A DNA stretch of 64,000 bases from assembly GCA_052035175.1 (NCBI GenBank), contig JBPOHV010000001.1, positions 169,569 through 233,568 on the forward strand, given 5' to 3'. The position numbers and the translations under genes are program-made. Positions 17,985 to 45,901 of this stretch are shown in pieces. Numbering within the stretch: position 1 is the first letter of the stretch; every line of letters begins with the position of its first letter. Under the pieces are notes generated by a model. It was given only the letters and a program-made list of their open reading frames with translations, was not told the origin of the DNA and did not search any database. Source of the DNA: a candidate division WWE3 bacterium. GTDB lineage: Bacteria; Patescibacteriota; WWE3; UBA101185; UBA10185.

Positions 17985-18106
17985 TGTCCCCATTTTGGAA
18001 CACCTCTTCGAGAGCTTAATACGTACTTCTGAAAGACTCCAAGAGTTAGGCTTTACCTATTATAATGGAAAAGTGACTGTTATTGAAACTCAAGAGGAGG
18101 GAAACA

Positions 18107-18547
18107 ATGGATAACTCCTCTCTTTTTGACGAAAGGACATTTTATAAGCAATTTATACCCGATTTACTTCGATGTGATCATGAGGTTATTATCGAAAGTC
18201 CATTCATAACTAGTGAACGAATGGCTACTTTGTATCCTGTTTTTGAAAAACTAGTGAACCAAGGTGTAAAGGTTTATATCATAACCAGAGATCCTAAAGA
18301 ACACTCTAATGGCTATGAAATACAATCTGAAGCTGAAATACAGCGTTTCGAACAGTTGGGTGTACAAGTTTTCCTTTGCATAGGCAACCATCACCGCAAA
18401 TTAGCAATCCTTGATAGAAATATCCTATGGGAAGGTAGTCTCAATATTCTTTCTCAAATACAAAGTAGGGAAATCATGAGACGAATTGAAGCTAAAAGCG
18501 CAGCAGTTGAAATGTTTAATTATTTGAAGCTGGGGAGGTTTTTATAG
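18107..18547 (+). CDS. single-HKD phospholipase-D-family nuclease (Nuc-like)
   Basis: 'GNHHRKLAILD' HxKxxxxD motif. ~146 aa like plasmid Nuc. Strong AGGAGG Shine-Dalgarno 8 nt before the ATG at 18107. The ORF track began it at an upstream TTG. Confidence 0.6.
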   Translation: MDNSSLFDERTFYKQFIPDLLRCDHEVIIESPFITSERMATLYPVFEKLVNQGVKVYIITRDPKEHSNGYEIQSEAEIQRFEQLGVQVFLCIGNHHRKLAILDRNILWEGSLNILSQIQSREIMRRIEAKSAAVEMFNYLKLGRFL

Positions 18548-21378: not shown

Positions 21379-21379
21379 A

Positions 21380-22471
21380 TTAATCTCCTTTAATCTTCTT
21401 GCTTAGAGTAGTTCTGCTGATACCAACCATCTCACTGGCACTTCTTTGAGAACTACCTAAGCTAACCATTAATTTAGCTACTTTCAATTTTGATTCTTTA
21501 TCTAATTTATCAATGTGTTGCGTGAAATATTCAACAACAGCATTATCTAATTTAATTTTTTTTATCACTGACTGTTTTCTAATTGATAACACAGCCCTTT
21601 CAATATCGCTAAAAGACAAAGAATTTAAAAGTGATACCAAATAATTTTTAACCTCTTTTGACTCAATTTTCTCTTTTCCCAAATAAAGGTCTACAGCCTT
21701 AACAACTTGCTCTGTTAAAGGCATTGGAAATTCAATCTCTAAATCAAATCTTCTCCATACTGCTGGGTCTAACAATGAAGCATGGTTTGTCGCAGCAATT
21801 AATAAACTATGCTCTGGCCACTCATCTATCTCTTGAAGAATGACTGTTACTAATCTCTTAAGTTCTCCAACATCTGCATTGTCATCTCTTTTTTTAGCAA
21901 TAGCATCAATTTCATCCAAAAGTAAAACACATTCCATACCCTTTGCGTAATCAAGTACATTTCTAATATTTGAGCCAGTGCGACCCAAAAAACTGCTCAT
22001 GACAGCGGATAAATCAAGTACCAAGAGGGGCATGCCTAATTTATAGGCAACCCATTTTGCTGCTAATGATTTACCGACACCAGGCTTTCCAGTAAATATA
22101 ATTGATTTTGTTGCTTGTAAACCATGCTCTCTTAATTTTCTTTTCTGTGTTCTTTCTACAATTACCTGATTAAAAATTTTTTGAATGGAATTTTCCCAAA
22201 TTGGCTCAAAGTCTAAAATGGGTTTATGAAACATACGAACCAGCTCTAGTCTAGTATCTAAGTCTACTGGGATATTGGCCATTTTTGTGTTTCTAAAACC
22301 ACTTACATTTCCTTTGTGAAATATATTTAATTTATTACTCAAATCTGGATAGTTTTCTTTAAGAACTTTGTGATGACGCTTGAGGTACATCTGCAAATCT
22401 TCAGACTTATTTTCAGCAGACAATCTTATTAGCTGGTACAGAATTTCTTGTATGTTCTTTTTTTGAGCCAT
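21380..22471 (-). CDS. AAA+ ATPase with C-terminal Fis-type HTH (IetA-like)
   Basis: Walker A 'GKPGVGKS'. Walker B 'LLLDEID'. Sensor-1/Arg-finger region 'ATNHASLLDPAVWRRFD'. C-terminal 'GISRTTLSKKIK' Fis/NtrC-type HTH. Confidence 0.7.
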   Translation of the reverse strand: MAQKKNIQEILYQLIRLSAENKSEDLQMYLKRHHKVLKENYPDLSNKLNIFHKGNVSGFRNTKMANIPVDLDTRLELVRMFHKPILDFEPIWENSIQKIFNQVIVERTQKRKLREHGLQATKSIIFTGKPGVGKSLAAKWVAYKLGMPLLVLDLSAVMSSFLGRTGSNIRNVLDYAKGMECVLLLDEIDAIAKKRDDNADVGELKRLVTVILQEIDEWPEHSLLIAATNHASLLDPAVWRRFDLEIEFPMPLTEQVVKAVDLYLGKEKIESKEVKNYLVSLLNSLSFSDIERAVLSIRKQSVIKKIKLDNAVVEYFTQHIDKLDKESKLKVAKLMVSLGSSQRSASEMVGISRTTLSKKIKGD

Positions 22472-22619: not shown

Positions 22620-23228
22620 TTAATGCAAAAACACCATGGGATCTACTGGCAACCCAAACACGCGTATTTCAAAATGTAAATGTGGTCCGGTTGCCCAACC
22701 AGTCTCACCCATTTTGCCTATTACATCTCCTAGTTTTACTTCCTGGCCTTTAAATACATAAATTTTGTCAAGATGTGCATAGACCGAGCTAATGTTGTTG
22801 CCATTGTCAATAATAATATGCTTGCCATATCCCCAGAAGATTTCACCTGCATAGATGACTTTCCCATCCATAAAAGCAATCACTGGATCACCAATTTTTC
22901 CTTGAGGATTAGCAATATCCAGCCCCGTATGAAATACCTGATACAGACTTGATTCACCAAACTTTAGAGTAACAACTCCTTGTGCTGGCCATGCAAATGG
23001 ACCTGGTACTTCTGCAAAAACACTTCCATCTTTGGGATTGAGAACTTGGATGGTACTGGTATTAACCTCAACATCAACCAGTGCATCAGACACAATATTG
23101 ATACCCGTGTGCATGAGGATGAATACGGCAATAACCGGAAGTGATAAAACAATCAGGAATGAAAAGAGGACAAGCTTCAGTTCGTTACGAAATGACCAAA
23201 TTGTACTAGCAGTAAATAGTGGATGCAT
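22620..23228 (-). CDS. M23 family metallopeptidase (T4SS-associated cell-wall hydrolase)
   Basis: N-terminal TM anchor. 'HTGLDI' and 'GPHLHFEI' zinc-ligand motifs of LytM/M23. Last gene of the conjugation operon. Confidence 0.75.
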   Translation of the reverse strand: MHPLFTASTIWSFRNELKLVLFSFLIVLSLPVIAVFILMHTGINIVSDALVDVEVNTSTIQVLNPKDGSVFAEVPGPFAWPAQGVVTLKFGESSLYQVFHTGLDIANPQGKIGDPVIAFMDGKVIYAGEIFWGYGKHIIIDNGNNISSVYAHLDKIYVFKGQEVKLGDVIGKMGETGWATGPHLHFEIRVFGLPVDPMVFLH

Positions 23229-23232
23229 TCAT

Positions 23233-25062
23233 TTATGTATAGATCTCCCTCGGATCAGTGGTTAAAAGGGGATGCTCTTTCTCTGAAGCAACTACTTTCA
23301 CCGCCACATGGTTTTGATCGGCTATAACCAGAGCTTCTCCACGATCACAAGTCAATAGAAAATGCTGTTCATATTCACTCAAATGAAACTCTTGGGCTAC
23401 TTTTTTAATGGTTGTTGTATCCTGCTTCATAAGAATCCTCAGCGAGGATTGTGATGCAACTGCACGACCATAATCTTGATTTAAAAAGTCATTGGCCTGT
23501 TGGCTGATAATCGTTACTCCCAAGTAATATTTTCTGGCTCTGCGAACGAGTCCTGCCACAAACCTCGCACTTTCCTCATGTTGCAGGAGTAGCCAGCCCT
23601 CATCGATGACGAGGATTCTCTTTTGTGGATGTGATTTGACTTGTGAATGCACAAAGTTGGCAATCGTGAGCATCATGACTTGTCTTAATGATTCATCCAA
23701 ATCTTTAATATCAAATACCACCAATCGATTATCAAGTTTTACATTGGTTTGTGAATCAAAAACAGATGAGAGTGAACCTGTCACAAACTTATCAAGCCGG
23801 TGGCATAACTCTTTTTGATTCATAGCTTTGAGTTCTTTATAAAAATCTTTCAATTGAGGCATAGTGACGTTTTTGCTTCTATTCTCTTTCTTCATGGTAA
23901 TTCCGACTTTCTTGTACGTTTGGATAAGGGCTTTATCAACCACTGCCTTTTCTTCATCTGAGAGTGAACCAGCCATCAGAGAAATAATTTCAGTAAGGTC
24001 TTGGATATGTTCAGCTAAGGCATTTTCACCAGTTGCCGTATGCAATGAAAAATCAAAGGGATTGATCTTTTCGTGGGAAGTTGCTGATAATTTGATGTAT
24101 GTACCTTTAACAGATTTCGCCAGTTGCTTGTACTCCCGTTCGGGGTCAATGACGATTACCTTGGTGCCTTGCATGAGCTGGCGCAAGATTTCAACTTTTG
24201 CGGTATAACTTTTACCACTGCCTGATTGGGCAAAGATAATTGAGTTAGCATTGTTTAGTGAGAATCGATCCACAATAACGAGCGAATTGTTTGACCTATT
24301 AATCCCATACAATATCCCTGATTCTTGTACTAACTCTGAAGATACAAACGGGAATGTTAAAGCAGCTGACGAACTATCAAGATTTCTTCTCTGCCCTAAT
24401 TGATTCTCTCCTCGAGGAAGAACTGACTGTAAGCCTTCGAGTTGTTGGAAGGTAGCAGTTTTAAGATAAAAGAGTCTGGTGGACATGACTGTTTCTAAAA
24501 TGGTAGTGGTTTTATCGAGTTCAGTTAAGGAATCTGCTGTAATCGTCATGTAGATTGAGATTTGGAATAGTTTTTCTTGGCCTCGTTGGATTTTGTCTTT
24601 TAACTCCATTGCCGACTCCAAAGGGTCAGTAATTTCTGAACCAATCACTTTACCCGCTTTGAGCATTGAGCGCTTGGTTGATTCAAGCTCAGTGATTTTT
24701 CTATTTAGTTTTGGTAATGCTAAGAGTGGATCAACGTGTTCAATGTGATACGAAATATCAATATTGTGGTTAAAGTTAATCAGCATATTGAGCCAACCCA
24801 CAGATGCTACATATGGATAACCGGAGATGAAAAGTGTTCGAACACATTTATCTCCCACTTTAAGATATGAAGATTCTTCTGACAGTCCGGAATATGAAAT
24901 GAGGTCAACTTGATCTTGTTCACCAAAATGAAACTCAACTGCTTTCTTGGTGATTTCTTTAGTAGTAGCTTTTCGCTTTCTTTTCTTTAGTTTAGGAAAT
25001 TTAAAAGTTAATCTACTAAGTGGCAGTTTTTGTAATAATTGTGGTGTTGGGATATTAAACAT
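23233..25062 (-). CDS. VirB4/TrsE-type conjugative transfer ATPase (ATPase portion)
   Basis: Walker A 'AQSGSGKSYTAK'. Walker B 'LVIDEGW'. Matches VirB4 size and layout once combined with the upstream ORF. Confidence 0.75.
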   Translation of the reverse strand: MFNIPTPQLLQKLPLSRLTFKFPKLKKRKRKATTKEITKKAVEFHFGEQDQVDLISYSGLSEESSYLKVGDKCVRTLFISGYPYVASVGWLNMLINFNHNIDISYHIEHVDPLLALPKLNRKITELESTKRSMLKAGKVIGSEITDPLESAMELKDKIQRGQEKLFQISIYMTITADSLTELDKTTTILETVMSTRLFYLKTATFQQLEGLQSVLPRGENQLGQRRNLDSSSAALTFPFVSSELVQESGILYGINRSNNSLVIVDRFSLNNANSIIFAQSGSGKSYTAKVEILRQLMQGTKVIVIDPEREYKQLAKSVKGTYIKLSATSHEKINPFDFSLHTATGENALAEHIQDLTEIISLMAGSLSDEEKAVVDKALIQTYKKVGITMKKENRSKNVTMPQLKDFYKELKAMNQKELCHRLDKFVTGSLSSVFDSQTNVKLDNRLVVFDIKDLDESLRQVMMLTIANFVHSQVKSHPQKRILVIDEGWLLLQHEESARFVAGLVRRARKYYLGVTIISQQANDFLNQDYGRAVASQSSLRILMKQDTTTIKKVAQEFHLSEYEQHFLLTCDRGEALVIADQNHVAVKVVASEKEHPLLTTDPREIYT

Positions 25063-25675
25063 AGTGATGTTCCAGTAACCTTTCTATGGTTTGACCTTTG
25101 AGCGCCTGAGTTTTTATTTGGGACGGGTTGTAGAAACTGTAGAAAAGATCCAGAATTTCTAAACTATCCAGTTGTCTGGCTTTCATCCCCAGTTTATCCA
25201 ATCCCTTCATTACTAAATCACGGGTTAAATGGAGTTGTTCCTTTACTAACTCTCTATCAGGATGTTTGTCTTCTGAATGGTGGGGAATGACAACGTAGAA
25301 ATGTCTGGAGAGAATTTTATTACCACTTACCAAATTTCGAATGAAGTCACAGTAGGCTTGGATTTGTAGTTTATAGACCGTCTCTTTTTCCTTCTCTTTT
25401 GTCTGAAGAATTTGACCCACATAATCGTCAATATCTAGTTCCCGTACTCGAATGAGAATTTGGAGTTTGCAAGGAAGAGCGTTTAAGAAGTTTTGGAAGC
25501 TATCAATTAACACATCCTGCTCATCTTCACTTTTCAACTCAAAATTAACCGATGAAGAAGCCAACACAAGCCTATATTCGTTATTAGGAAGGGTTAAGAT
25601 ACCATCCTGCACTTCCTTAATGGCAATCTGTCTTCGTGAACTCACCTTATTTTGCGATTTCTTGAAAAGCCACAT
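25055..25675 (-). CDS. VirB4 N-terminal domain ORF (split from the ATPase portion)
   Basis: Resembles N-terminal domains of Gram-positive VirB4 homologues. Its stop overlaps the start of the ATPase ORF at the 8-nt 'ATGTTTAA' overlap, in a different frame. Confidence 0.45.
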   Translation of the reverse strand: MWLFKKSQNKVSSRRQIAIKEVQDGILTLPNNEYRLVLASSSVNFELKSEDEQDVLIDSFQNFLNALPCKLQILIRVRELDIDDYVGQILQTKEKEKETVYKLQIQAYCDFIRNLVSGNKILSRHFYVVIPHHSEDKHPDRELVKEQLHLTRDLVMKGLDKLGMKARQLDSLEILDLFYSFYNPSQIKTQALKGQTIERLLEHHYV

Positions 25676-26165
25676 TTAAGCCTCCTTTCTTTGCAACACG
25701 GAACTTCAAATCAAATTTTTTATTGGTCAATGCATACTCCAGTTTGATTGCGTCAGATATATGTAATGTCGACAGTTTAGTTTCTACTGTTTCCTTTACT
25801 ACTTTCTTTTTAAAAGTGAATCGTGGTTTGGTAACTATCTTGGGAAGGTCAAGTAGGCGCTGATAGGTATCGTTTTTGTTGAAGACATAGAATCGCGGTC
25901 GCAGATTGTATCGAAATAGAATTATTAACCATTGTGCAACAACTACACCTTCAATTCGTAAGGAGAGAAAAATACATATAAGCGTAATTACGATCGTTAA
26001 TGCTAGTTTGTAGACAACCAACTGCATGCTTGGTGGAAACAAGACGTAAATGATTGTCGCGAGACACACTGGAGAAATGAGGATCATTATTTGGGTTAGG
26101 CTCAAGTTACCTGCGATCTTGTCTTCTACGGTAGTTATTTGTGCTGGGATGACTTTGGTTCTCAT
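25647..26165 (-). CDS. VirB3-like small membrane protein
   Basis: Two hydrophobic helices near the N-terminus. Position between the VirB6-like and VirB4 genes. Confidence 0.35.
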   Translation of the reverse strand: MRTKVIPAQITTVEDKIAGNLSLTQIMILISPVCLATIIYVLFPPSMQLVVYKLALTIVITLICIFLSLRIEGVVVAQWLIILFRYNLRPRFYVFNKNDTYQRLLDLPKIVTKPRFTFKKKVVKETVETKLSTLHISDAIKLEYALTNKKFDLKFRVAKKGGLNVAFQEIAK

Positions 26166-27451
26166 GCGTTTATGACCTTTCTCGGTGTTTTGGCGATTCC
26201 TTGTGCTACAGCTCTGGTTGCAGACGATGAATTGTCAGCACTCATCACATTCATGATTTGGTTCCCGAGCTTTTTAAATGTTCCTGTTCTTGAAGTATAA
26301 AAAGCCATGCCCATCATGTAGGAGGGAATTTTAAGGAGGGTAAAAAATAGTCCAATCGCAACGGCAATAGAAATTAAAGAATTCTCAGTATGTGCAGGCA
26401 GGGCAAGAAATGAAGCAGCCAGTTGAATGACGACGACATGCACAAAAGCCATGAAGACTGTAACAAAGTACGTTTTGACAGCAATACTAGCCATATCAGA
26501 AAACTTAGGTAAGGTTGAGAGTAAAAAGATAAAGGGTGACAGCACTGCTCCCAGAGAAATGAGAATCAATCGGCTGATGTACATAAGAAGCAGGACAATC
26601 GAGAGAATCAAAAACAGAACTAAAAATACCAAAGTAATAAGCGGTGTAGCACCAGTAATAAATGCAGCTGGATTAATTGCATCCATGATCCAGGCTTGAT
26701 TGAGTCCACCGGTTGAATTGAGAACTGCCGCAACTAGAGCGTTGCAGGTAATAATCACGTAGTCGGCTAAGAATAAGGAGGTATTGGCTCCTAGAAACGC
26801 GAGTCCAAGTTTCGGAAGCAACACTTTGAGTTCCACTTCTTCAAAACCAAAAGTACTCGCACTCATAACTTGGAGGCCAAGCAGGGCTACGACGAGGACA
26901 AATAACGTATCGACAATCCCCAGACTTACCAGCCAGAAGTTTCTCACCACAGTGTTATTTAACAGTGTAGGAGTGGTCGTAAGATAGCCAATAACGCCAT
27001 TCACAATGGGAGCGGTGGAACTTTCTACGATATTTTGGATAAAACCGGAAACAGCATCAATTAGGACTTGAGTCAGACCTTCACTTGGTTCGACGCTTTC
27101 AATAGGAACAAGTTCAATCGGAATACTTCCACTAGGATTTTCTGTAGGTGTGAGTGCTTGAGTAAAGACAGAAACAATCAGATTGGCTGAAAGAACGAGG
27201 AGTAATCCGATCAGGGCATTCTTGATCGTGTGTTTGGCAGATTCCAAGGCATCAGGTCTACCTGTTGAGGTTATATAGGTGTAGCCACCCTTAATCAGGA
27301 AAAAGACTGAAGACAAAGAAGCGATGAGAGTTAAAATTTGCAGTGTGTTGTTGGTGTAATCAACTAACCCGGAATCAGCGGCAAAGGTATGAGAAGGAAA
27401 TAAAAAGAGACACAATATTATTACAAATAGGATGCATATACGCCTTATCAT
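26162..27451 (-). CDS. VirB6/TrbL-like polytopic membrane protein with N-terminal pilin-like segment
   Basis: Signal peptide plus at least six TM helices. The N-terminal segment 'GGYTYITSTGRPDALESAKHTIKNALIGLLLVL' is paralogous to the upstream VirB2-like pilin. Confidence 0.55.
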   Translation of the reverse strand: MIRRICILFVIILCLFLFPSHTFAADSGLVDYTNNTLQILTLIASLSSVFFLIKGGYTYITSTGRPDALESAKHTIKNALIGLLLVLSANLIVSVFTQALTPTENPSGSIPIELVPIESVEPSEGLTQVLIDAVSGFIQNIVESSTAPIVNGVIGYLTTTPTLLNNTVVRNFWLVSLGIVDTLFVLVVALLGLQVMSASTFGFEEVELKVLLPKLGLAFLGANTSLFLADYVIITCNALVAAVLNSTGGLNQAWIMDAINPAAFITGATPLITLVFLVLFLILSIVLLLMYISRLILISLGAVLSPFIFLLSTLPKFSDMASIAVKTYFVTVFMAFVHVVVIQLAASFLALPAHTENSLISIAVAIGLFFTLLKIPSYMMGMAFYTSRTGTFKKLGNQIMNVMSADNSSSATRAVAQGIAKTPRKVINA

Positions 27452-27482
27452 GAATGGATGCTTTCACTTTAGGCAGTGACAC

Positions 27483-27818
27483 TTACTGACCAGATCCGAA
27501 TGCTGTTGTTGCAAGTTGACTGATGACATTAGACAGTACAAAAGCAGCCAACACGATAGTTAATCCAACCGCTGAATACAAAATGGTCTTCTTTGATTTA
27601 TCCAGTGCTTCAGGACTCCCAGAACTCGTAATATATCCAAATCCTCCCCAGACCAGAAAACCTGCGGCAACTAAGCCCGAGAGAGTGACAAGAACTTGAA
27701 TAATACTCTGGATGAATGTTTGAATTTTAGAAACATCAGCGGACTCGGCAAAGGCTGGAGGAGCGGCGATAAGAAGTAAGGTGAGAATTATTGCTTGTGT
27801 GTAGATAAATTTTTTCAT
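27483..27818 (-). CDS. VirB2/TrbC-like pilin
   Basis: 111 aa. Signal peptide (AFA cleavage-like) followed by two hydrophobic segments. First gene of the T4SS operon. Confidence 0.5.
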   Translation of the reverse strand: MKKFIYTQAIILTLLLIAAPPAFAESADVSKIQTFIQSIIQVLVTLSGLVAAGFLVWGGFGYITSSGSPEALDKSKKTILYSAVGLTIVLAAFVLSNVISQLATTAFGSGQ

Positions 27819-27876: not shown

Positions 27877-27899
27877 CAAAAAAACTGCCAAGGTGGCAG
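27877..27899 (-). terminator. possible terminator after uppP
   Basis: CTGCCA-AGG-TGGCAG hairpin, followed on the minus strand by a T7 tract. Confidence 0.3.
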
Positions 27900-27980
27900 C
27901 AGGTTGTTCAATTACTTGAACTGAGGAGATTATAGCAATCCAGATAGTAAAGTCAATTGGTTTGTACTAACCGTTTATTT

Positions 27981-28746: not shown

Positions 28747-29235
28747 CTATTGAATTACTTCAACTTGCCCTTTCATCCATGGATGAGGTGAACAATGGTA
28801 AGGGTTATTGGAAGAGTTAAGAAATGTAAAAGAATAACTTTCTCCTTTTGCCAAAAGCGGTCCTTCAAACTTACTGGGATCGTCTCCCAGTTTTGCATCA
28901 TGAGGTTTGTCCGAGTCTTCATGATCAAGCATGACGTTATGTTTCATATCATCTTCGTTCGTCCAAGTGACTGTAGTTCCAGCTTGAATTCTTATTTTTT
29001 TGGGAACGTATTCAAAGTTCTTAATTACCACTTTTACTTCTTTTGATGCAGTGAAATCTACCATATCATTGCTTTGAGCTTGAGTTGGAGTAGTAAGAAC
29101 CTCATCATTTATATGTGTTGAAGTAGGTATAATAGAAGTTGTATAGTAGTTCTTGTTTATATTATAACCTAATAACATTACACCAATCCCAAGAAACACT
29201 AGAATTACAAGTCCAATAAGAAGTGGCTTTTTCAT
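28747..29235 (-). CDS. secreted cupredoxin (plastocyanin/azurin-like blue copper protein)
   Basis: Signal anchor. Type-1 copper ligand pattern: H ('HNVM'), then C-terminal 'YHCSPHPWM' (C-x2-H-x2-M). Confidence 0.6.
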   Translation of the reverse strand: MKKPLLIGLVILVFLGIGVMLLGYNINKNYYTTSIIPTSTHINDEVLTTPTQAQSNDMVDFTASKEVKVVIKNFEYVPKKIRIQAGTTVTWTNEDDMKHNVMLDHEDSDKPHDAKLGDDPSKFEGPLLAKGESYSFTFLNSSNNPYHCSPHPWMKGQVEVIQ

Positions 29236-29308
29236 TTTTGTAGTTTAACAAAAAATTAGTTTGAAAACAAAAAATTTAATATATTTAGTTCCTAACCAAT
29301 ATTTACAC

Positions 29309-29773
29309 CTAAGTGAAATTTTCCAAATATTTTTTTATATTCTCACCTTCGTCTTGAATATGTTTCTTGGCAACGTCGGTCTTCACAAAGAACTGAAAAA
29401 TTTTATCTATTAAGCCCGCCCGATTGCCATACTCAACGTACGCAGTCAGTTTGGATGTATTTTTTGAAACACTTTCTATAGAAAAATATCCCATCCCAAA
29501 GTTGAATAAAGAGAAAGGAAACGCTGGTTCATATTCAATATACTCATTCTTTTTTATTTTTGTGACTTTAAGGATTAAATAAAGAGGAAAACCACCGATT
29601 TTCTCCAAAAAGTGGAAAACACACCCACGCTGATTCAAATCTTGAAAGATCACTTTACAAAAAACATGATCTTTAGGATGCCAGGTTTTGTAAAGAGTAT
29701 CTATACGAGTAAGAAAGTTAAAAACGCTTTGAGTATTGGCATTAATAATTGTTTCTTGTTTGATGATTATCAT
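29309..29773 (-). CDS. hypothetical protein
   Basis: 154-aa ORF, no motif. Confidence 0.3.
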   Translation of the reverse strand: MIIIKQETIINANTQSVFNFLTRIDTLYKTWHPKDHVFCKVIFQDLNQRGCVFHFLEKIGGFPLYLILKVTKIKKNEYIEYEPAFPFSLFNFGMGYFSIESVSKNTSKLTAYVEYGNRAGLIDKIFQFFVKTDVAKKHIQDEGENIKKYLENFT

Positions 29774-31683
29774 GTGCTTATGTTATTTTTATCAGTACCA
29801 AAATGAAATAACCTCAGACTATTAGCCACTACAACTACAGTCATCCCTACATCTGCAAATATTGCCAGTGCAATGTTACCCATTCCAGAAAGAGCAAGTA
29901 TAAGAAATATTATTTTAACTCCAACTGAAGCCACAATATTTACTCTGATAGTCCGAACAGAAGCTCTACCAAGTTTAACTAGAAAAGGAATAAGCTGTAG
30001 ATTGTTATTCATAAGTGCTATATCAGCATTTTCAACAGCCACTTCTGAACCTATGGCACCCATAGCAATACCCACCGATGCAATAGTTAGTGCTGGAGCA
30101 TCATTGACACCATCACCAACCATAGCAACATGTGTATATTTCTTAAGCAAGTTTGACAGCTGAACCACTTTGTCATCAGGAAGAAGATTAGCGTGAATTT
30201 CATCAACTCCAACTTCTTGAGCAACATAATTAGCTGCAGAGACATTATCACCAGTAAGCATTGCCGTTTTTACTTTTAATTGATGTAGAATTTTAATGGT
30301 GGTCGCGCTTTCTGGACGAATTGTATCAACAACTCCAATAACACCCTTAATTTTCTTCTCATCGCAAACGACAATAGCTGTCTTACCTTCTTTTTCAAAT
30401 CCCTCAACGATTTCGACTACACGCTTATCCACATCGTGTTCCTCCATAACAAACCGTAAGGTGCCTATGCAGTGGTGTCTGTCGACACAGACCAGACACT
30501 CACCACTGATACCTTTACCCATGGTAGCTTTGAAGTTTGTGTACTTGTGCATTTCCCCCGCAATTTTATGAGCACTTTCAACGATGCTTTTGGCAATTGG
30601 ATGTTCAGAAAACGCTTCAGCACCTGCCATACAAATAAGAAGCTCTTCTTTAGAAACACCGTTGAGTGGTATAACATCAGAAACTGTTGGTTCGCCTTTG
30701 GTTAAAGTTCGCGTTTTATCAAAAGCAATGGCTTTGATCCTACCAATTTCTTCTAAAAACTGCCCACCTTTAATGAGAATTCCACGTCTAGTGGCATTGC
30801 CAATAGCGGAAAAGATGGTAATAGGAGTGGAAATGACAAGTGCACAAGGACAAGCAATAAGAAGAAGAGTTAAGCTCTGGGTAAACCAGAATGTAAACGG
30901 TTGACCAAAGATAACCACTGGCACTACGGTAAGGAAGATAGCAAATGCAAACATGGTTGGCGTGTAGTAGGAAGAAAATTTTTCTATGAATTTAGCGGCC
31001 TGAGATTTACGTTCCGCAGCCTGGAAGGTTAGATCGACAATCTTCGCAAGTGTTGTGTCTTTAGAAACTTTAGTTACTTTTATTTCTAAATACCCCTGGC
31101 TATTGAGAGTTCCGGCAAATACCAGTTCACCTGTATATTTATTTTTCGGAAGTGGCTCCCCGGTGATGGTGCTTTCATCAACCAGCGACTCCCCGTTAAC
31201 AACTATGCCATCTAGAGGAATGTAATCCCCAGGTTTAACCATTACAATATCTCCGATAGTGATCTGTTCGATTGAAATTTTCTCTTTCTGTCCCTTAACC
31301 AGTGCTGTTTTGGGGGTCTTTTCAACCAATTCTTCAAGAGCGTTTTGGCTTTTGGTAATACCAAATTCCTCAAGTGCTTCACTTACTGCAAAAAGAACGA
31401 TGACAATGACTGCTTCTTCTAATTCACCTAAGTACAATGCACCAAAAGTAGCAACAGTCATCAATAAATTGATGTTAGAAAAGTGCAAATTTACAAAACT
31501 CTTAAACCCATTAATGATTACATTTCTACCAAAGAAAAAAATAATAGCACCGAAAACAGGTATCTCAATAAATTGAGGTAAATGAATTGAGAATAGAGAC
31601 AAAATCTCAAAAGGAATAACAAGAAGTAACGTTAGCGCCAATCTTTTAAATTTATTGTCTTTTAGTAAATCATAAACAAGCAT
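29770..31683 (-). CDS. P1B-type heavy-metal translocating ATPase (ZntA/CadA-like, no N-terminal metal-binding domain)
   Basis: TM6 'CPC'. TM7 Lys and TM8 'ADVGMT' (Asp-x-Gly), the Zn/Cd/Pb subgroup pattern. 'MLTGDN' and 'GDGVNDAPAL' motifs. Phosphorylation motif reads 'DKTRTLT' instead of DKTGT. Confidence 0.7.
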   Translation of the reverse strand: MLVYDLLKDNKFKRLALTLLLVIPFEILSLFSIHLPQFIEIPVFGAIIFFFGRNVIINGFKSFVNLHFSNINLLMTVATFGALYLGELEEAVIVIVLFAVSEALEEFGITKSQNALEELVEKTPKTALVKGQKEKISIEQITIGDIVMVKPGDYIPLDGIVVNGESLVDESTITGEPLPKNKYTGELVFAGTLNSQGYLEIKVTKVSKDTTLAKIVDLTFQAAERKSQAAKFIEKFSSYYTPTMFAFAIFLTVVPVVIFGQPFTFWFTQSLTLLLIACPCALVISTPITIFSAIGNATRRGILIKGGQFLEEIGRIKAIAFDKTRTLTKGEPTVSDVIPLNGVSKEELLICMAGAEAFSEHPIAKSIVESAHKIAGEMHKYTNFKATMGKGISGECLVCVDRHHCIGTLRFVMEEHDVDKRVVEIVEGFEKEGKTAIVVCDEKKIKGVIGVVDTIRPESATTIKILHQLKVKTAMLTGDNVSAANYVAQEVGVDEIHANLLPDDKVVQLSNLLKKYTHVAMVGDGVNDAPALTIASVGIAMGAIGSEVAVENADIALMNNNLQLIPFLVKLGRASVRTIRVNIVASVGVKIIFLILALSGMGNIALAIFADVGMTVVVVANSLRLFHFGTDKNNIST

Positions 31684-31707
31684 AGGTCCATTTTACACAG
31701 ATATTAA

Positions 31708-32352
31708 TCAATAATTTACATAATAATTAATTTTTGCATCAGCTTTGAGAGAAGCAATCCATGATGGAGCTTCCTGACTTAGTTTTTGGCTTTTTAGCTG
31801 TTGTGCTATTTGGTTTTTTATTTCAGTTTCCTTACCATCTACCAATTCAACCTTATTGTCCTGGATGTATTTGTTTATCTCCTCATCTGTTACTTGGATT
31901 TTATCCGCAAGAACTTTCTCAATTTTCTTTTGAACTAATAAATGCTTTTTCAAAGCTTCTTTAGTCATTCCTTGTTGGAGTAGTGCAGCATCAAGCGTGC
32001 TTCCCTGCTGGATAATTGATACTTCAATGTTTTTTATTTCCAGATCAATTTCATCACTGGTTACAGTGATACCTTTCTTCTTAGCTTCGTTGTCAATTAA
32101 CTTCTCGGTAATAAGGGCATCTAAGGTGTTTTTACCACCTTGCTTTTCCAATTCTTGAATAACACTTAATCTTGTTACCGGGCGCCCGTTTACCATAGCT
32201 GCGACAAAAGCACCTTTAAAATAAAACAACGATCCAAAAACAATCCCAATAAGTACAATGGATAAAAGTAATTTTCTACTTTTCAATAGCCTGAATTTTT
32301 CTGCTTTTGGCTGCTCAAAATTAGCTTCTGACTTAGTTATTTTTTCATTCAT
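31708..32352 (-). CDS. SurA N-terminal-domain-like membrane-anchored chaperone
   Basis: N-terminal TM anchor, then a helical domain resembling the SurA/PrsA N-terminal chaperone domain. Confidence 0.4.
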   Translation of the reverse strand: MNEKITKSEANFEQPKAEKFRLLKSRKLLLSIVLIGIVFGSLFYFKGAFVAAMVNGRPVTRLSVIQELEKQGGKNTLDALITEKLIDNEAKKKGITVTSDEIDLEIKNIEVSIIQQGSTLDAALLQQGMTKEALKKHLLVQKKIEKVLADKIQVTDEEINKYIQDNKVELVDGKETEIKNQIAQQLKSQKLSQEAPSWIASLKADAKINYYVNY

Positions 32353-32455
32353 ACGTTTCCTCTATTAAATTTTTATACCTTAAAATCTCCCATACACAAA
32401 TTTTCTAACTTCTACTATACCGATGCGTATTTGACCACTCACTTTCTAATGATAG

Positions 32456-32935: not shown

Positions 32936-32951
32936 ACAATATCACCCCCTT

Positions 32952-36451: not shown

Positions 36452-36479
36452 AATTACTTTCTTTCATATCCAGCAGAAC

Positions 36480-37753: not shown

Positions 37754-37782
37754 ATATTTTCTTTCATTTCATACTAAAAAAA

Positions 37783-40053: not shown

Positions 40054-40827
40054 TTATGGATCTTTAGGCTCCACTTTCTGTAATGTATCTCTGGTTAGTC
40101 CTTTTGTTTTTATTAGTTCCCTTGTTGAAAGGTAAAAATGTAGCCTTGCTTCATCCTCAAGCTTCTTTCGAATCTCTTTATGCAAATAGTTTTTTGACCG
40201 ATCATCTGGGCAGACAAAAATAATTTCTGGGAATGGTTTATCAGTGTGATCCTGCCAGTACTCATTCTCGTAATAGTCAAAATATTGCTTAACTCGCTTA
40301 TAAAGAACATTTTTCGGTGGTAATTCATCAAAGATATCAAGGAAGTATCTTTTTGTTCTCCCATTTGCTTCTTCGATTGAAAAATAAGCATCGGGATTGG
40401 GCAGGATAAGATACTGCATATCATCTAAATCCACTTTGGTATAAAAATTCAGTTTGGCTTTGGTTTTGTTAGTGAGTTCAACTAAAGAAAGATAAATATC
40501 TGCTACAAACAAACAGTGGTTTTTAAACTGTGTTGATAGCGTTGGTTCCCTCCAAACTCGATCCAAAAGCTCAGGCTTCACTGTACTGAATTTGTCTGGA
40601 TTACTCTTCAAATACTTTCTGCCTTTTAATCCTAATGAATACAGAGCTGGTATGGTAACTGTTTTGGGATTGTAATAACGTCTGATGTGTCCAGATTCGG
40701 TTAGTTCGTTGAGCCAGATGATAATGCGGTTGAAGTGTTTGTGATGGAGTAGATGTTGGATGTGAATACGGTGTAAGAAACGGAAGCGATAGAGATAATT
40801 AAATATGTTGTCGTGTTGGTTGTTCAT
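40054..40827 (-). CDS. putative replication-relaxation family protein (relaxosome candidate)
   Basis: Basic/His-rich N-terminal wHTH-like region. Position immediately downstream of the coupling protein. No HUH motif seen. Confidence 0.3.
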   Translation of the reverse strand: MNNQHDNIFNYLYRFRFLHRIHIQHLLHHKHFNRIIIWLNELTESGHIRRYYNPKTVTIPALYSLGLKGRKYLKSNPDKFSTVKPELLDRVWREPTLSTQFKNHCLFVADIYLSLVELTNKTKAKLNFYTKVDLDDMQYLILPNPDAYFSIEEANGRTKRYFLDIFDELPPKNVLYKRVKQYFDYYENEYWQDHTDKPFPEIIFVCPDDRSKNYLHKEIRKKLEDEARLHFYLSTRELIKTKGLTRDTLQKVEPKDP

Positions 40828-40956
40828 AAATAAAGATAGTAAAAATAATAAATACTTAGACTTTCATTCCTTCTCCTTATATATAAGGATATAGAGGTAG
40901 TACATTTCCATATTCCAGCCTTAAAATCAACCAATTCCAGTGTAAACACGCTTACA

Positions 40957-43503
40957 CTAACTCAAGGTATCTACATCCGTATAAAGTGTAGGCTGATTAC
41001 CATGTTTCTTCTCAGTTTTTGACTCAGATCGTATCGTAGTTTGTACAACGGGACTTTTATACTCGACAGCAAAGTTCTTTCGTGAGGCTTCAATCACTTC
41101 GTTTGCTTTTTGCATATTTTCTTCAATCTTGACAGGAATAGTAACCCCCGAAAACGGCTCTTCTGGATTAAGTGCGCCAAGTCTTATATAGAAATGGTAT
41201 GAAGGTAAACTGGCTATTTCTCCTTGTTCAATATATGGCCTAAACTGTGGCAAGATCATTCGTTCGTCTTCTGGGTTTGCAGTCCTAAAACAAATAACTG
41301 TTCCTGTATTAGCCAGGGTTACATTTACAAGTGACGTTTCTTCGAGTTGTGAAGTTGTTTGATGGGCAAGGATTGCGCCTAACCTATATTTTCTTGCTTC
41401 CGAAAGAATTTGCGCAAATGCAGGTGTGGCAAAGTTTTGGAACTCGTCAACATATAAATAGAAGTCTTTTCTTTGCTCTTGAGGGATCCTAGCTCTCTTT
41501 AAAGCTGCAAGTTGAATCTTGGCCATAATCAATACTCCAAATACCTCTGAGTTATCTTCTCCAATCTTTCCTTTGGAGAGATTGCACAAGAGTATTTTGC
41601 CTTCGTTGAGAATCGTGTCAAAGTTGACAGTCGATTTACCTTGTTCAAGTATTCTCTTGGCAGTTGGAGAAAACAGAAACCGCCCAATCTTATTTGTAAT
41701 CGGAGAGATCATTTTCACTTTCTGATAATCACCAGCCTTGGCAAACTCATACTTCCAAAAGTCTTTCAGGTTTTCATCAACGATGTTTTTAGTGACCGAA
41801 TTTCTGTAGGGTGTATTGATAAGTAACTTGTAGACAGTAAACAGTGTGGCATCTGGAACTGTAAAGGCAGTATGAATAGTATTTCGGAGGATATATTCCA
41901 TTCTCGGTCCAGAGTACTTATCAGAGTAGATTTTATGGAACACAGAGATAATGCTTTCTGCAATAAATTCTTTTTCTCTCACGGCATCTTCCGCACTTAA
42001 TCCTTGGGTTAATTCGAGTAAATTAATCCCCATCGGATAGCTAATGTCGTCTGGATTAAAGTACACAACATCTGGTATTCGCTTTGTAGGAATAGTTGAT
42101 AAGGCTTGTTCTATTAAATCTCCATGCGGATCTATCACACATAGACCTTTGCCGTTATGAATATCTTGATTAATCATGGATAAGAGCATGGTTGATTTAC
42201 CTGTGCCCGTAGCTCCCAAAATATATACATGTCGCCTTCTTTCATCTAAAGATAACCCGATATTTGTACTACTTCCTCCATAGGTATTTTTGGCAAATAT
42301 AATGTCTAAATCCTGAGCACGCTTGAGTGAAACCGGAGCTGGAAGTTCTTTACTGTGCAGTTTAACCAAGTCTTCAGTTTTAGTTGTACTCGTAAATGGC
42401 AAATGATAGATATCACTTATTTCTGAAACTGAAAGAATAGAATTGCTAAAAATACCAAGCAACCTATTTCTGAAAAGAAATGTCTTTAATGTTTTTATTA
42501 ACCTCAGTTTGATGTGCAATGACGGAATGATTGCCTGATATCCAGAATTACCAAAGGAAGAAAGAGCTGAAATGAACCCTCGTTCTCTTTTGCGAATTTC
42601 AGCGTAGTTGTTTCCCACAATGAGTAAGCGAATAGAAGTAGTAAATAATTGTTGATCTAGCTTTTCTTTTACCAACTGCTCAAGCTCCATTTGATAGGGA
42701 TTATCAGTTTTCTTTTGATTTCTATTTAGGAAAAAAGACCAGAATGGTTTTCTTTTAATATTCTTCAAAAGATCACTGTTTGAATAAATAAGTTGTGAGA
42801 TTCGAGAGATATCTTTTACCAAAGATTTGGTTACTGGCGATACCACCAACTGGAAAGATACTAATTCATTTTCTTCCAGCTTGGTCATACTTCCTGTGGT
42901 GTAAGCAATGGGATCGTGTTTCTCTAAGACGGCTTGCTTCTTTAAGGGAAAGGCAAAGTGGTTTGATAATTTAAATTCTGTGATTTTAAGTAAGGACTTT
43001 CCAATGCCGCCAAAACCGTAATCATCAACTTCTTTAACACTCACTCCTGGAAGATATGAAAATAGACTCTTTTTCAGTAAGTCCGCATCTTCAGACACGA
43101 TCCGAATCAAATATCTGATTCCTTGGTCTTTTGTCGCCACAATCTCGAATGAATAGCTATTACTAAGTCCTAATACTCTCGACCAAAAAGTTCGCTGACG
43201 AGCCAGACCATGAATGAGGTTAAATAATTCCTGTGTAGTATATGGACTTTGTTCTGTGGTCTTGAGCGGTTTGACTTCAAGGATAGTGTAGTTTTGTCTC
43301 AGTTGCAGTTTTATGTGAAACAACTTAAACAGAAGGAGTAAATCGAGTGCAATAAGTAGAGCCAAGAGAAGATATACAAAAACAATAGACACAAGAGGCC
43401 AGGATCCAGAAATGTGTACTTGAGAAAGAAATGAAGAAACTTGCGGAAAAAGTTTAGAAAAAAGAATATTGTTAGTGAATAGTTCTTGTAATCCTGTATT
43501 CAT
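40957..43503 (-). CDS. type IV coupling protein (VirD4/TraG/TcpA-like)
   Basis: Two N-terminal TM helices. Walker A 'GATGTGKST'. Walker B 'LYVDEFQNF'. 'AHQTTSQL' motif typical of TraG/TrwB ATPases. Confidence 0.75.
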   Translation of the reverse strand: MNTGLQELFTNNILFSKLFPQVSSFLSQVHISGSWPLVSIVFVYLLLALLIALDLLLLFKLFHIKLQLRQNYTILEVKPLKTTEQSPYTTQELFNLIHGLARQRTFWSRVLGLSNSYSFEIVATKDQGIRYLIRIVSEDADLLKKSLFSYLPGVSVKEVDDYGFGGIGKSLLKITEFKLSNHFAFPLKKQAVLEKHDPIAYTTGSMTKLEENELVSFQLVVSPVTKSLVKDISRISQLIYSNSDLLKNIKRKPFWSFFLNRNQKKTDNPYQMELEQLVKEKLDQQLFTTSIRLLIVGNNYAEIRKRERGFISALSSFGNSGYQAIIPSLHIKLRLIKTLKTFLFRNRLLGIFSNSILSVSEISDIYHLPFTSTTKTEDLVKLHSKELPAPVSLKRAQDLDIIFAKNTYGGSSTNIGLSLDERRRHVYILGATGTGKSTMLLSMINQDIHNGKGLCVIDPHGDLIEQALSTIPTKRIPDVVYFNPDDISYPMGINLLELTQGLSAEDAVREKEFIAESIISVFHKIYSDKYSGPRMEYILRNTIHTAFTVPDATLFTVYKLLINTPYRNSVTKNIVDENLKDFWKYEFAKAGDYQKVKMISPITNKIGRFLFSPTAKRILEQGKSTVNFDTILNEGKILLCNLSKGKIGEDNSEVFGVLIMAKIQLAALKRARIPQEQRKDFYLYVDEFQNFATPAFAQILSEARKYRLGAILAHQTTSQLEETSLVNVTLANTGTVICFRTANPEDERMILPQFRPYIEQGEIASLPSYHFYIRLGALNPEEPFSGVTIPVKIEENMQKANEVIEASRKNFAVEYKSPVVQTTIRSESKTEKKHGNQPTLYTDVDTLS

Positions 43504-43581
43504 GCCTACTTTTTTTAGGGCAACATGAGCAGGCTTATATTACTGAGGGAAGTATATATCAGGGTTAGTGTATTGGCAAAA

Positions 43582-43863
43582 TTATTTGCCTGAATCAGCC
43601 CTTGATGCAATTTTTTGAATTTTTTGAGCGATTTCTTCTTCAACACCTAAATCCCTAGTTACTATTGTAAGGGCACCGTACATGAGCTCTGACCGACTCG
43701 TCTCCTCTGGAAGATTGAGCATCTGAGCTAATACTCCAAAAGAATGATCAATTAAAAATTGATTTGGAGAGTGATCAAGAAGCAATAGCATGCACTGTCC
43801 CAGTTGATGAGAGATACCTTGTGCAGGGGTTTCTGTACCTCTCCTATTTGCTTCTAATGGCAT
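43582..43863 (-). CDS. hypothetical small protein
   Basis: 93-aa ORF upstream of the coupling protein gene. Confidence 0.3.
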   Translation of the reverse strand: MPLEANRRGTETPAQGISHQLGQCMLLLLDHSPNQFLIDHSFGVLAQMLNLPEETSRSELMYGALTIVTRDLGVEEEIAQKIQKIASRADSGK

Positions 43864-43993
43864 ATTATTACCTCGTTAGCCAAGTATTATATATCCTGGT
43901 CAAAACATTTTATAGGCTCTTGACAAGGTTATCTCAAAATATTATATTATCTATATATGGATAGTGTAAATTAAAGATTTATCTGATTTTGAT

Positions 43994-44170
43994 ATGGGAA
44001 GAGCAATACGTAAGGTAACTACAACTAAAAGAAAATCTCCGAAAACCCCTACTCCTTTATTGTCTCTTGAAGAGCAACTGAAAGTTTTTGCCAATGTTAT
44101 CGTAGATAGAATCTTAGAAGAACAGCAAAACGGCAATGTTTTATTGAGTAAGGAGAAACAGCATGGATAA
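43994..44170 (+). CDS. small basic protein, possible excisionase / recombination directionality factor
   Basis: 58-aa ORF absent from the ORF track. Its stop overlaps the recombinase ATG (44163). Confidence 0.3.
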   Translation: MGRAIRKVTTTKRKSPKTPTPLLSLEEQLKVFANVIVDRILEEQQNGNVLLSKEKQHG

Positions 44171-45848
44171 TGTAGCACGCCAAGAAAATGCGGTTGCAGC
44201 AATTCGAGTATCTTCTATTAAACAAGGCCTACAAGGCGATTCTCCAGAGCACCAAAAGGAGCAGATAGAACGCTTCGCCCAGGCTCATAATATTCATATT
44301 AAGAAATTCTTTATTTTCATGGAATCGGCTTCAAAAGAGGAACAGCCAGTCCAAGAAGCTATAGATTATTGTAAAAGTTCAAAAAATAACATTCAACTTT
44401 TCGTTATCAAATCTATAGATAGATTTACCCGCGGGGGTTCATACCTCTATGACCATTTAAAGATGCAACTAGTGAAATACAACGTTCAACTAGTGGATAT
44501 TTACGGGGTAATTGGTAGTCAGGAAGTAAACACCCTTGAACATTTGGGGATTGAATATGACTGGAGTATATATAGTCCAACCAAAAAGTCAGAAATCCTT
44601 GAAGCCGAAAGAGCAAAAGATGAGATGCGAGATATTATGACCAGAATGATTGGTGCAGAAATTCGCTATGTCCGATTGGGATTTAGAGTTCGGCGTGCTC
44701 CCTACGGTTATATGAACGAAAAAGTTGAAACCTCACATGGTAAACGAGTTATTCTAAAACCCCACCCCGAAGAATCACAGTGGATTTTAAAAATGTATGA
44801 ACTTCGTTGTCGAGGTACGATGACTGATCAGCAGATTGTAGACGAAATAAATACATTGGGTTTTCGTTCTAGAAAACAATATAGACGAAATCCTCAAGAC
44901 AGGACTAAAGTCATCGGTGAAACAGGTGGAAATAAACTTATCCTTAAACAATTCTGGCGTTACGTTGAAAGTCCTATCTATGCAGGGGTAAATGTTGAGA
45001 AATGGACAAATGGTCAGCCAATAAAGGGTAAGTTTCAAGGTTTAGTACCTATTGAAATGTATAACAAAGCAAACAAAGGCAAAGTCACTCTCACAGAAGA
45101 AGCTGGTGAAGTACGATTATGGAAAAGAAAGCCAGCAGAATGGTACATAAAGAAAGATCCAAACAATCCAGCATTTCCCTATAAAAAGTATGTCACCTGC
45201 ACTCACTGTCAGAAACCTTTTTTTGGAAGTACTTCAAAGGGTAAAAGATTAAGATATTCTGCATACCATTGTAATAGGGGGCATAAATACTACCGTGTAC
45301 CAGTAAGTGAATTTAACGAAACTATTGAGACCTTCGTAAAGGGTGTAAAGCTAAATATGACCCCTGAATATATTGAAGAACTGAAAAAGTATGTTCTAGA
45401 GGCTTGGAATAGCCGTACGGAAGGAATTAAAAAGGATGCAGTAAACATTGATACAAAAATTCAGGAACTACAAATGGCATCGAAAGCTACCGCAGATAAG
45501 ATACGCTTTCTCAGTTCAGAAGTAGCCATCAAATATATGGAAGACGATTTAGTAAAGATTGATGGGGAAATAAAGCAATTAGAAGAAACAAAGGTTCAAA
45601 AAGATACAAAATCTACAAATATGGAGTTAGTGATGAAATACATAGAATACTTTTTGGAACACCTTGAAGATTTATTGCTGGGAAGCCCAAACCCTCTTAA
45701 AAGAGCTGCCTACTTTGGCCTACTCTTCGATGGACTGCCTACATATCAAGATTTGTGTTTTGGAACACCTAAATTAGCACCATATTTAGGACTAAAACAG
45801 CAGTTTGCTACTGCCTTACTCCCTAATGGTGACCCCACGGGGAGTTGA
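44163..45848 (+). CDS. large serine recombinase (integrase)
   Basis: N-terminal resolvase domain with catalytic Ser context 'AAIRVSSIKQG'. Recombinase domain, then zinc ribbon 'CTHC...YHCNRGH', then coiled-coil. The 3' end runs 22 nt into tRNA-Glu. Confidence 0.8.
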   Translation: MDNVARQENAVAAIRVSSIKQGLQGDSPEHQKEQIERFAQAHNIHIKKFFIFMESASKEEQPVQEAIDYCKSSKNNIQLFVIKSIDRFTRGGSYLYDHLKMQLVKYNVQLVDIYGVIGSQEVNTLEHLGIEYDWSIYSPTKKSEILEAERAKDEMRDIMTRMIGAEIRYVRLGFRVRRAPYGYMNEKVETSHGKRVILKPHPEESQWILKMYELRCRGTMTDQQIVDEINTLGFRSRKQYRRNPQDRTKVIGETGGNKLILKQFWRYVESPIYAGVNVEKWTNGQPIKGKFQGLVPIEMYNKANKGKVTLTEEAGEVRLWKRKPAEWYIKKDPNNPAFPYKKYVTCTHCQKPFFGSTSKGKRLRYSAYHCNRGHKYYRVPVSEFNETIETFVKGVKLNMTPEYIEELKKYVLEAWNSRTEGIKKDAVNIDTKIQELQMASKATADKIRFLSSEVAIKYMEDDLVKIDGEIKQLEETKVQKDTKSTNMELVMKYIEYFLEHLEDLLLGSPNPLKRAAYFGLLFDGLPTYQDLCFGTPKLAPYLGLKQQFATALLPNGDPTGS

Positions 45849-45901
45849 ACCCCGATTACCAGATTGAGAATCTGGTGTCCTAACCGCTAGACGATGGGGC
45901 C
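45827..45901 (-). tRNA. tRNA-Glu (anticodon CUC)
   Basis: Reverse complement folds as a cloverleaf. Acceptor GGCCCCA/UGGGGUC, D-arm GTCT..GGAC, anticodon stem CCAGA/TCTGG with loop TTCTCAA, T-arm GGGGT-TCAACTC-CCCGT (first T-stem pair G·T), encoded CCA. Confidence 0.85.

Follow-up and report, generated by a model that had tools for sequence, protein, structure and literature searches.

In the R388 type IV secretion system (T4SS), the stalk stands on a pentamer of VirB6, which offers a recruitment site for the pilin VirB2 on its helix α1 and an assembly site on its top (PMC9259494). VirB2 has been proposed to bind VirB6 α1 within the membrane, where the recruitment site also includes VirB3, and to be lifted thereafter atop VirB6, the pilus growing from its base (PMC9259494; PMC12624023). 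In Gram-positive systems, the VirB2-like protein PrgF is essential, is encoded beside the VirB6-like PrgH, and has been modelled as a tube on a PrgH pentamer, with the pilin termini outside the tube and the loop lining its lumen (bioRxiv 10.64898/2025.12.18.695078). The handover of VirB2 to VirB6 and the subsequent polymerization are still described by a model that draws on mutagenesis, docking and coevolution and, in monoderms, on AlphaFold and labelling. We analyzed a 64-kb stretch of contig JBPOHV010000001.1 from a candidate division WWE3 bacterium (hereafter, the window), and found a T4SS cassette in which a VirB2-type pilin module forms the N-terminus of a VirB6-like protein of 429 amino acids (aa), encoded directly downstream of a free pilin of 111 aa. 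An open reading frame (ORF) check placed the free pilin at 27483-27818 and the fusion protein at 26162-27451, both on the minus strand, and returned the coordinates and peptides that a first-pass annotation of this DNA had quoted. The parts of the two proteins are as follows.

27483..27818 (-): free VirB2-type pilin gene, 111 aa; signal peptide ending AFA/ES, two hydrophobic helices and a basic loop
27380..27451 (-): signal peptide of the fusion protein, residues 1-24, ...SHTFA/AD
27152..27379 (-): pilin-like module, residues 25-100; helical hairpin, helices 27-61 and 66-100
27077..27151 (-): tether, residues 101-125; disordered, S/A/P/T-rich, slightly acidic
26162..27076 (-): TrbL/VirB6-like polytopic domain (residues 126-416), basic C-terminal tail and stop codon

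BLASTP aligned the 111-aa protein with the 429-aa protein over 101 residues at 34% identity and 60% positives (E 9e-15), pairing residues 1-101 of the former with residues 2-98 of the latter, signal peptides included. When the signal peptides were stripped, the best local alignment was ungapped, spanned 75 residues and scored 136, compared with 28 ± 5 for composition-preserving shuffles (z 21.5) and 29 ± 5 for shuffles made within helix 1, loop and helix 2, which preserve the hydrophobic layout (z 19.6). The hydrophobic remainder of the 429-aa protein scored only 43 against the pilin. Because the real alignment stood at a z of about 20 above the shuffles and the remainder scored so low, the similarity between the pilin and the N-terminal module is not a generic likeness of hydrophobic segments. 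The Pfam model T4SS_pilin (PF18895, gathering cutoff 26.6 bits) matched the free pilin at 47.5 bits and the 429-aa protein at 37.0 bits, the latter match covering residues 27-96. The free pilin also matched TrbC/VirB2 (PF04956) above threshold (38.1 bits), as did the pilin module of the orthologous fusion protein P0031 (31.9 bits, cutoff 27.9), and scored 39.9 bits against a cutoff of 40 on NCBIfam NF045849, the Mbov_0395 pilin-like conjugal transfer protein. The window holds two pilin modules, the free pilin and the fusion N-terminus, and none further. These results confirm that the free pilin and residues 1-100 of the fusion protein are paralogues over the whole pilin length, about 75-100 residues. 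The first-pass annotation had called the 111-aa protein a VirB2-type pilin and had placed a paralogous pilin module behind a separate signal peptide at the N-terminus of the 429-aa protein, and both assignments are borne out, as is its expectation that the alignment would exceed shuffled hydrophobic segments; the paralogy that it claimed stands, but its extent of about 45 residues was an underestimate, since the entire pilin is involved.

We modelled the fusion protein with AlphaFold2 (AF2) from an alignment of 83 diverse family members (mean predicted local distance difference test, pLDDT, 78.7; predicted template modelling score, pTM, 0.72). An earlier run with 46 close orthologues (pLDDT 54, pTM 0.26) was discarded. 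The model consists of a signal-peptide helix (residues 2-17, followed by low-confidence residues 18-25), the hairpin 27-61/66-100 (pLDDT 83-93), a disordered stretch at residues 104-116 (pLDDT < 50) and a long, mostly hydrophobic helix bundle at 126-416. The N-terminal part thus has the layout of a pilin, namely a signal peptide, which aligns with that of the free pilin, two hydrophobic helices and a short charged loop. The module carries the motif GGYxYITSxGxPxxLxxAK, and the residues common to both paralogues (GG.xY.TS.G.P..L..xK, and G82) are preserved; K73 and G82 were invariant across the 83 diverse members, whose identities ranged from 40% down to 22%. Its loop region was net positive in 99% of 357 members. 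Pilins are small free subunits of about 70-130 aa; this module instead runs on covalently into a domain of 330 residues in every complete member from Patescibacteria.

The tether is constrained in a different manner. Its length was 22-25 residues in >95% of the 357 members (minimum 12, maximum 29) and its net charge was zero or negative in 85%, while its mean identity between loci was 31% and no conserved motif was seen in the sampled tethers. A fixed length with a free sequence suggests that the spatial relation of module and platform is fixed. The basic loop and the neutral-to-acidic tether fit an arrangement in which the loop faces the cytoplasm and the tether lies on the outer side, so that the hairpin would enter and leave the membrane on the outside and would not be needed to orient VirB6.

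The assignment of the remainder of the 429-aa protein as VirB6/TrbL-like, which the first-pass annotation had also made, was supported by its relatives, by a domain search and by fold matches. Close orthologues reached the threshold of TrbL_4 (PF19597; 27.4-28.4 bits, cutoff 27), and Saccharimonadales relatives matched TrbL_4 at 38.7 bits and, in P0370, TrbL/VirB6 (PF04610) at 26.8 bits (cutoff 25.9); precomputed Pfam annotations of relatives list TrbL_3 (PF19590). Residues 100-429 alone, searched against 1.8 billion representatives, retrieved high-GC TrbL-like proteins of actinobacterial type (E 1e-15 to 1e-10), which carry weak to significant TrbL and TrbL_4 matches. The homology of the window protein to TrbL-matching relatives is itself secure. 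In a Foldseek comparison with the PDB, five of the six best matches were TrwI/VirB6 chains of the R388 stalk (probability 0.97-0.99), and a profile search of PDB sequences gave only a chance match to a designed protein. The gene lies directly upstream of those for PrgI/VirB3 and a split VirB4. Together, these results give good support to a VirB6-like C-terminal domain, with the window protein itself falling below strict per-protein thresholds.

The fusion is shared by the relatives of this protein. The 120 best database relatives (64-100% identity) were all about 430 aa long, and a pilin domain was found in all of them except the 373-aa P0103. An identical protein is encoded on a 46.5-kb contig of SRR34217543. 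A second clade, from Saccharimonadales, comprises proteins of 410-515 aa that are about 35% identical and have the same T4SS_pilin plus TrbL_3 architecture; some of these are named merely 'pilin' at NCBI. When the VirB6-like domain alone was the query and the 150 best representatives at 50% identity were sorted by N-terminus, 55 had the pilin module, 47 were N-terminally truncated records, 19 began at the VirB6-like domain, and 29 had at least 40 upstream residues and no module. The members of this last group were without exception distant and high-GC, and they bore a signal or anchor sequence together with a Pro/Thr/Ala-rich spacer. The module was kept in every sufficiently complete Patescibacterial relative. 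A tblastn search against plasmids gave no match. The fusion thus characterizes the Patescibacterial branch of this VirB6 family and is not a local artefact, the outcome that the first-pass annotation had named as refuting it; a host lineage within the CPR/Patescibacteria likewise agrees with the database relatives and with the GTDB labels of the loci described below. A published survey described VirB6 as 'scarce' in Microgenomatia, and this may be explained in part by fusions that were caught by the pilin profile, some of them carrying the NCBI name 'pilin'.

The two pilin copies appear to have been separate for a long time. Mean identity between loci was 73% for the core of the free pilin and 59% for the fused module, whereas the two copies within one locus were 34% identical, with a maximum of 42%. 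The signal peptides drift, with identities of 30-44% (mean 30% for that of the fusion protein). Since both copies are conserved between loci yet are only 34% identical within a locus, these values indicate that the neighbouring pilin gene was duplicated long ago and one copy joined to virB6, after which each copy came under its own purifying selection, with no gene conversion. The lower conservation of the tethered copy would fit a terminal subunit that touches the polymer on one face only.

We then compared 80 loci from GTDB species representatives, labelled Shapiro-, Davies-, Levy-, Gottesman-, Pace- and Woykebacteria, WWE3 and Saccharibacteria, some of the bins being evidently mislabelled. 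All 80 had the cassette in the order free pilin, pilin::VirB6, PrgI, TrsD-like VirB4 N-terminal protein, VirB4 ATPase and M23 hydrolase, with flanks that were not conserved. The free pilin and the fusion occurred together in 78 of the 80 loci, the others being cut at a contig edge, and wherever no contig edge cut the locus, the free pilin gene immediately preceded the fusion gene; their constant association suggests that the two roles are not redundant. Two Saccharimonadales loci (L082 and L083) had the same gene order, followed directly by the coupling protein. No VirB5-like gene is among the six genes of the cassette. The remaining cassette features in the window are as follows.

25647..26165 (-): PrgI/VirB3-like gene (PF12666, 33.4 bits), present in 78/80 loci
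23233..25675 (-): split VirB4, comprising a TrsD/TraC-like N-terminal protein of 206 aa (25055-25675) and an ATPase of 609 aa (23233-25062)
22620..23228 (-): M23 peptidoglycan hydrolase (PF01551, 112 bits), the last cassette gene
27884..27956 (-): promoter-like site upstream of the pilin gene, followed about 30 nucleotides (nt) on by a GC hairpin and T-run (consensus scan only)

VirB4 matched the NCBIfam model of the CD1110 family (373 bits), the 206-aa protein matched TrsD and VirB4 N-terminal models, and the split into two proteins was seen in all 80 loci. The M23 hydrolase, a putative functional analogue of VirB1, was present in 65 of the loci, the rest being cut by contig ends, and was swapped for a CHAP domain in one Saccharimonadales locus. 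The promoter-like site reads TTGACT-16-TGnTATAAT, an extended -10 type that agrees with the consensus at 11 of 12 positions; the hairpin and T-run after it could be a leader/attenuator or the terminator of the upstream uppP gene, and beyond them stands the strong Shine-Dalgarno-like GGGGGTGG of the free pilin gene. The ribosome-binding site of the fusion gene is far weaker than that of the pilin gene. Overlaps of 4 nt (ATGA) between the fusion and PrgI genes, 29 nt between those for PrgI and the VirB4 N-terminal protein, and 8 nt between the two VirB4 genes suggest translational coupling. Six assemblies had two diverged copies of the cassette (L005/L012, L021/L022, L006/L025, L043/L044, L041/L056 and L035/L042). 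Many cassette-bearing records of metagenome-assembled genomes were labelled Pseudomonadales, Gammaproteobacteria, Methanobacterium or Micrarchaeota, evidently as mislabelled or contaminated bins.

On this anatomy, the 429-aa protein would serve a compact T4SS of monoderm type as its VirB6-type membrane platform, with a complete VirB2-type pilin permanently joined to its extracytoplasmic N-terminus by a flexible tether of 22-25 residues. If VirB6 forms a pentamer, the tethered modules would provide one ring of pilin-like subunits at the assembly site, and this ring, by ordinary pilin-pilin contacts, could seed the polymer of free pilin and hold it on the platform, the outcome being a short conduit across the wall. 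A C-terminal tether leaving the surface of such a tube is sterically plausible, because the pilin termini lie outside the tube in the Gram-positive model. What we observed is the homology, the domain layout and its conservation, a tether kept within a narrow range of lengths, and the surrounding genes; we infer from these that five tethered modules on a VirB6 oligomer seed or retain a tube of free pilin. The first-pass annotation had suggested a minor pilin, an adhesin tip or a pilus-anchoring adaptor; an anchoring or nucleating role appears to suit the anatomy best, which gives no hint of an adhesin.

Several points weigh against this interpretation, for which we consider the chances evenly balanced. 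The seeding and retaining mechanism is a proposal reasoned from the observations above, and the pentameric stoichiometry of the fusion protein is assumed from R388. If the pilus grows from its base, a tether of about 25 residues, which spans at most about 9 nm, would block growth or allow only a few layers; the interpretation therefore needs a short conduit or another mode of growth. The window protein itself had no TrbL profile match in Pfam at E ≤ 1, and its fold match to TrwI was weak in absolute terms (E 0.045-0.16, TM-score 0.37-0.44). Finally, mean-field direct coupling analysis of the 357 sequences (effective number, Meff, 156) for contacts between the hairpin and VirB6 ranked clade-marker hubs on top, and its positive control, the contacts between helix 1 and helix 2, failed.

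The ring need not be basal. Base growth in the R388 model puts the first-assembled layer at the tip (PMC9259494), and the tethered modules could form this outermost layer and stand in for the VirB5 tip, with free pilins inserting beneath them and the tether setting the maximum length of the conduit. The lack of a VirB5-like gene in the cassette and the faster evolution of the N-terminal module, as expected of a terminal subunit, agree with such a distal cap, and a tether of constrained length could serve as the ruler. However, the reach of the tether permits few layers only, and the module has no adhesin-like or extra domain; we regard a cap as unlikely. The module might also remain in the membrane at the VirB2 recruitment site, beside the helices of VirB6 and VirB3, as a docking partner or gate. 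This would be consistent with the formation of that site by VirB6 α1 and VirB3 (PMC9259494; PMC12624023), with PrgI/VirB3 being the next gene and apparently translationally coupled, and with a module that is topologically neutral, both of its ends lying outside. With a membrane-resident module, however, there is no obvious reason for a tether outside the cytoplasm to be held to a set length, and the retention of the complete pilin signature with its basic loop also speaks against it; it too seems improbable. The ring may be basal (an anchor), distal (a VirB5-like cap) or membrane-resident (docking or gating), and the present data are compatible with a basal ring and with a distal cap.

The disordered and exposed tether of the AF2 model could alternatively be cut after membrane insertion, yielding a second, minor pilin and a canonical VirB6, and a gene for an S8 protease lies nearby in the window. 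That gene, however, belongs to an IetAS defence pair that is absent from the other 80 loci, the sampled tethers share no motif and little sequence (31% identity), and a conserved length would be unexpected of a mere cleavage spacer. It might also be argued that the hairpin is a relic or a topogenic addition that merely contributes two membrane anchors and has no pilin-specific role, given that distant relatives of actinobacterial type function without the module, having a signal or anchor sequence and a spacer in its place. The hairpin, however, follows a cleavable signal peptide of its own and has both ends outside, so that the orientation of VirB6 is left unaltered, which argues against a purely topogenic role; moreover, the pilin-signature residues are conserved across members of only 22-40% identity, and every complete Patescibacterial member keeps the module. 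Because the tether has no apparent motif and a constrained length and because the signature residues are conserved, we consider both cleavage and the relic explanation very unlikely.

The cassette apparently sits in an integrative conjugative element (ICE) of about 28 kb, extending from about 18.0 to 45.9 kb of the window. Its other features are as follows.

18083..18547 (+): PLD-family nuclease (PF13091, 41.5 bits)
19165-22471 (-): IetAS pair, comprising an IetA-like AAA ATPase (PADLOC, 276 bits) and an IetS-like S8 protease (137 bits)
28747-39971: copper/redox cargo block of P-type ATPases, cupredoxins, DsbD, DsbA/thioredoxins, a repressor and an M56 protease
29770-31683 and 34136-36451: two paralogous heavy-metal P-type ATPases, with a 71-nt stretch 75% identical between them
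38612-39625: M56 sensor-protease, part of the copper block
39591-39971: CopY/TcrY-like repressor, part of the copper block
40054..45901 (mixed strands): transfer/integration end, with the relaxase candidate, coupling protein, serine recombinase and tRNA-Glu
40054-40827 (-): Replic_Relax candidate relaxase, 257 aa (PF13814, 39.3 bits, cutoff 25.3)
40957-43503 (-): coupling protein (T4CP), with TrwB_AAD_bind, TraG-D_C and T4SS-DNA_transf
44163-45848 (+): large serine recombinase, with Resolvase and Zn_ribbon_recom
45827-45901 (-): tRNA-Glu(ctc), overlapping the 3' end of the recombinase ORF by about 20 nt

An integrase, a coupling protein, a relaxase candidate and a T4SS are thus present on one island. 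The PLD nuclease was found downstream of the cassette in 32 of the 80 loci and also in Saccharimonadales loci. Of the 80 loci, 14 had the coupling protein and relaxase as a pair no more than 8 kb from the cassette and 5 had the recombinase, the order being constant throughout, whereas none of the window genes outside the region from about 18.0 to 45.9 kb recurred in the 80 loci. This recurrence in order, with variable cargo, argues for a mobile backbone. The overlap of the recombinase gene with tRNA-Glu may mark the integration site, and the PLD nuclease is the probable other end of the backbone. No convincing direct att repeats turned up on either side of the island, GC content changes only softly at its borders, and the position of the recombinase next to tRNA-Glu is no more than suggestive. 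This ICE-like setting, with its coupling protein and candidate relaxase, had been missed by the first-pass annotation.

The cargo includes the anti-phage/anti-plasmid IetAS pair directly after the T4SS cassette, and the copper block, which also holds three cupredoxin-domain proteins and DsbD-like and DsbA/thioredoxin proteins; similar heavy-metal ATPases were found near the cassette in seven other loci. A UppP gene is also among the contents of the element. A survey of Patescibacterial T4SSs (PMC12102498) used MOBscan, reported matches in eight MOB classes and left open the existence of 'very different relaxases'; we noticed no Replic_Relax-type class among the matches that it reports, and the Replic_Relax protein may be such a relaxase.

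Since the machine appears to belong to an ICE, the conduit here most likely serves DNA transfer between Patescibacteria. The element thus suggests that some Patescibacteria exchange DNA by conjugation, carrying copper-resistance and anti-phage cargo. A broader proposal takes the fusion as a natural 'Rosetta stone' for the VirB2-VirB6 assembly step. The idea that five tethered modules make up the lowest-numbered, initial ring of a short conduit of limited length, in place of VirB5, and that the cassette marks widespread conjugative elements of Patescibacteria with an overlooked Replic_Relax-type relaxase, is tentative, and we lean towards doubting it in this combined form. If true, a conjugative family of the Replic_Relax type would run counter to the view that conjugation has mostly disappeared from the T4SSs of Patescibacteria.

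The combination of a pilin and a TrbL domain was already visible in precomputed Pfam annotations. Nevertheless, a VirB2-VirB6 fusion was undescribed in the searchable literature, namely the PMC12102498 survey, a genetics paper in Cell (2023), T4SS reviews from 2025, the preprint on the Gram-positive pilus, and full-text searches for PF18895 and for fusions; subscription papers were mostly outside this coverage, and an earlier mention is possible. A conserved natural fusion with a tether of fixed length would provide independent evolutionary evidence for direct contact between VirB2 and VirB6, and the protein would be a convenient construct for structural work.

Among described systems, a preprint on the CPR 'Pam' pilus was considered as a related system and set aside, as its Ig-fold pilus is unrelated. 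Southlakia has an essential T4SS near the origin (PMC10633639) that is of another type, with an array of six pilin genes and, encoded apart from them, VirB6-like proteins of 999 and 1088 aa, for which no PF18895 match is listed; we considered whether its essential VirB6 is of the fused type and rejected this, because these proteins are about 1000 aa long and list no pilin match, so that the two systems should not be equated. The Mycoplasma ICE (pilin-like Mbov_0395 and VirB4 Mbov_0397) is likewise a minimal monoderm ICE machine, and the VirB4 of the window scored 293 bits on the Mbov_0397 model; however, the scores lie under the equivalog cutoffs, and no fusion is described in Mycoplasma. In pCF10 and other Gram-positive T4SSs, a small VirB2-like gene (PrgF) similarly stands beside a VirB6-like gene (PrgH) in a monoderm, with a pilus predicted on a VirB6 pentamer (bioRxiv 10.64898/2025.12.18.695078), but the two are separate and no fusion is reported, whereas in the cassette of Patescibacteria the pilin occurs twice, once free and once fused.

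Pilins of the VirB2/TrbC and T4SS_pilin families, including those in Patescibacterial pilin arrays (PMC10633639; PMC12102498), have in common with both copies a signal peptide, two helices and a basic loop, although one copy here is the N-terminal domain of a platform. Extended VirB6 proteins (Rickettsiales, F TraG, TcpH) and VirB3-VirB4 fusions are precedents for added VirB6 domains and for fused interacting T4SS neighbours (PMC12857230; PMC12102498), but the extended proteins carry central or C-proximal hydrophilic domains in place of an N-terminal pilin. Like canonical VirB6/TrbL proteins (Agrobacterium tumefaciens VirB6, R388 TrwI), the fusion protein has a polytopic helical membrane domain and is encoded beside VirB3 and VirB4. 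It differs from them in belonging to a monoderm-type system that has neither an outer-membrane complex nor a VirB5 partner, and in the addition of an N-terminal VirB2-type pilin on a tether of fixed length.

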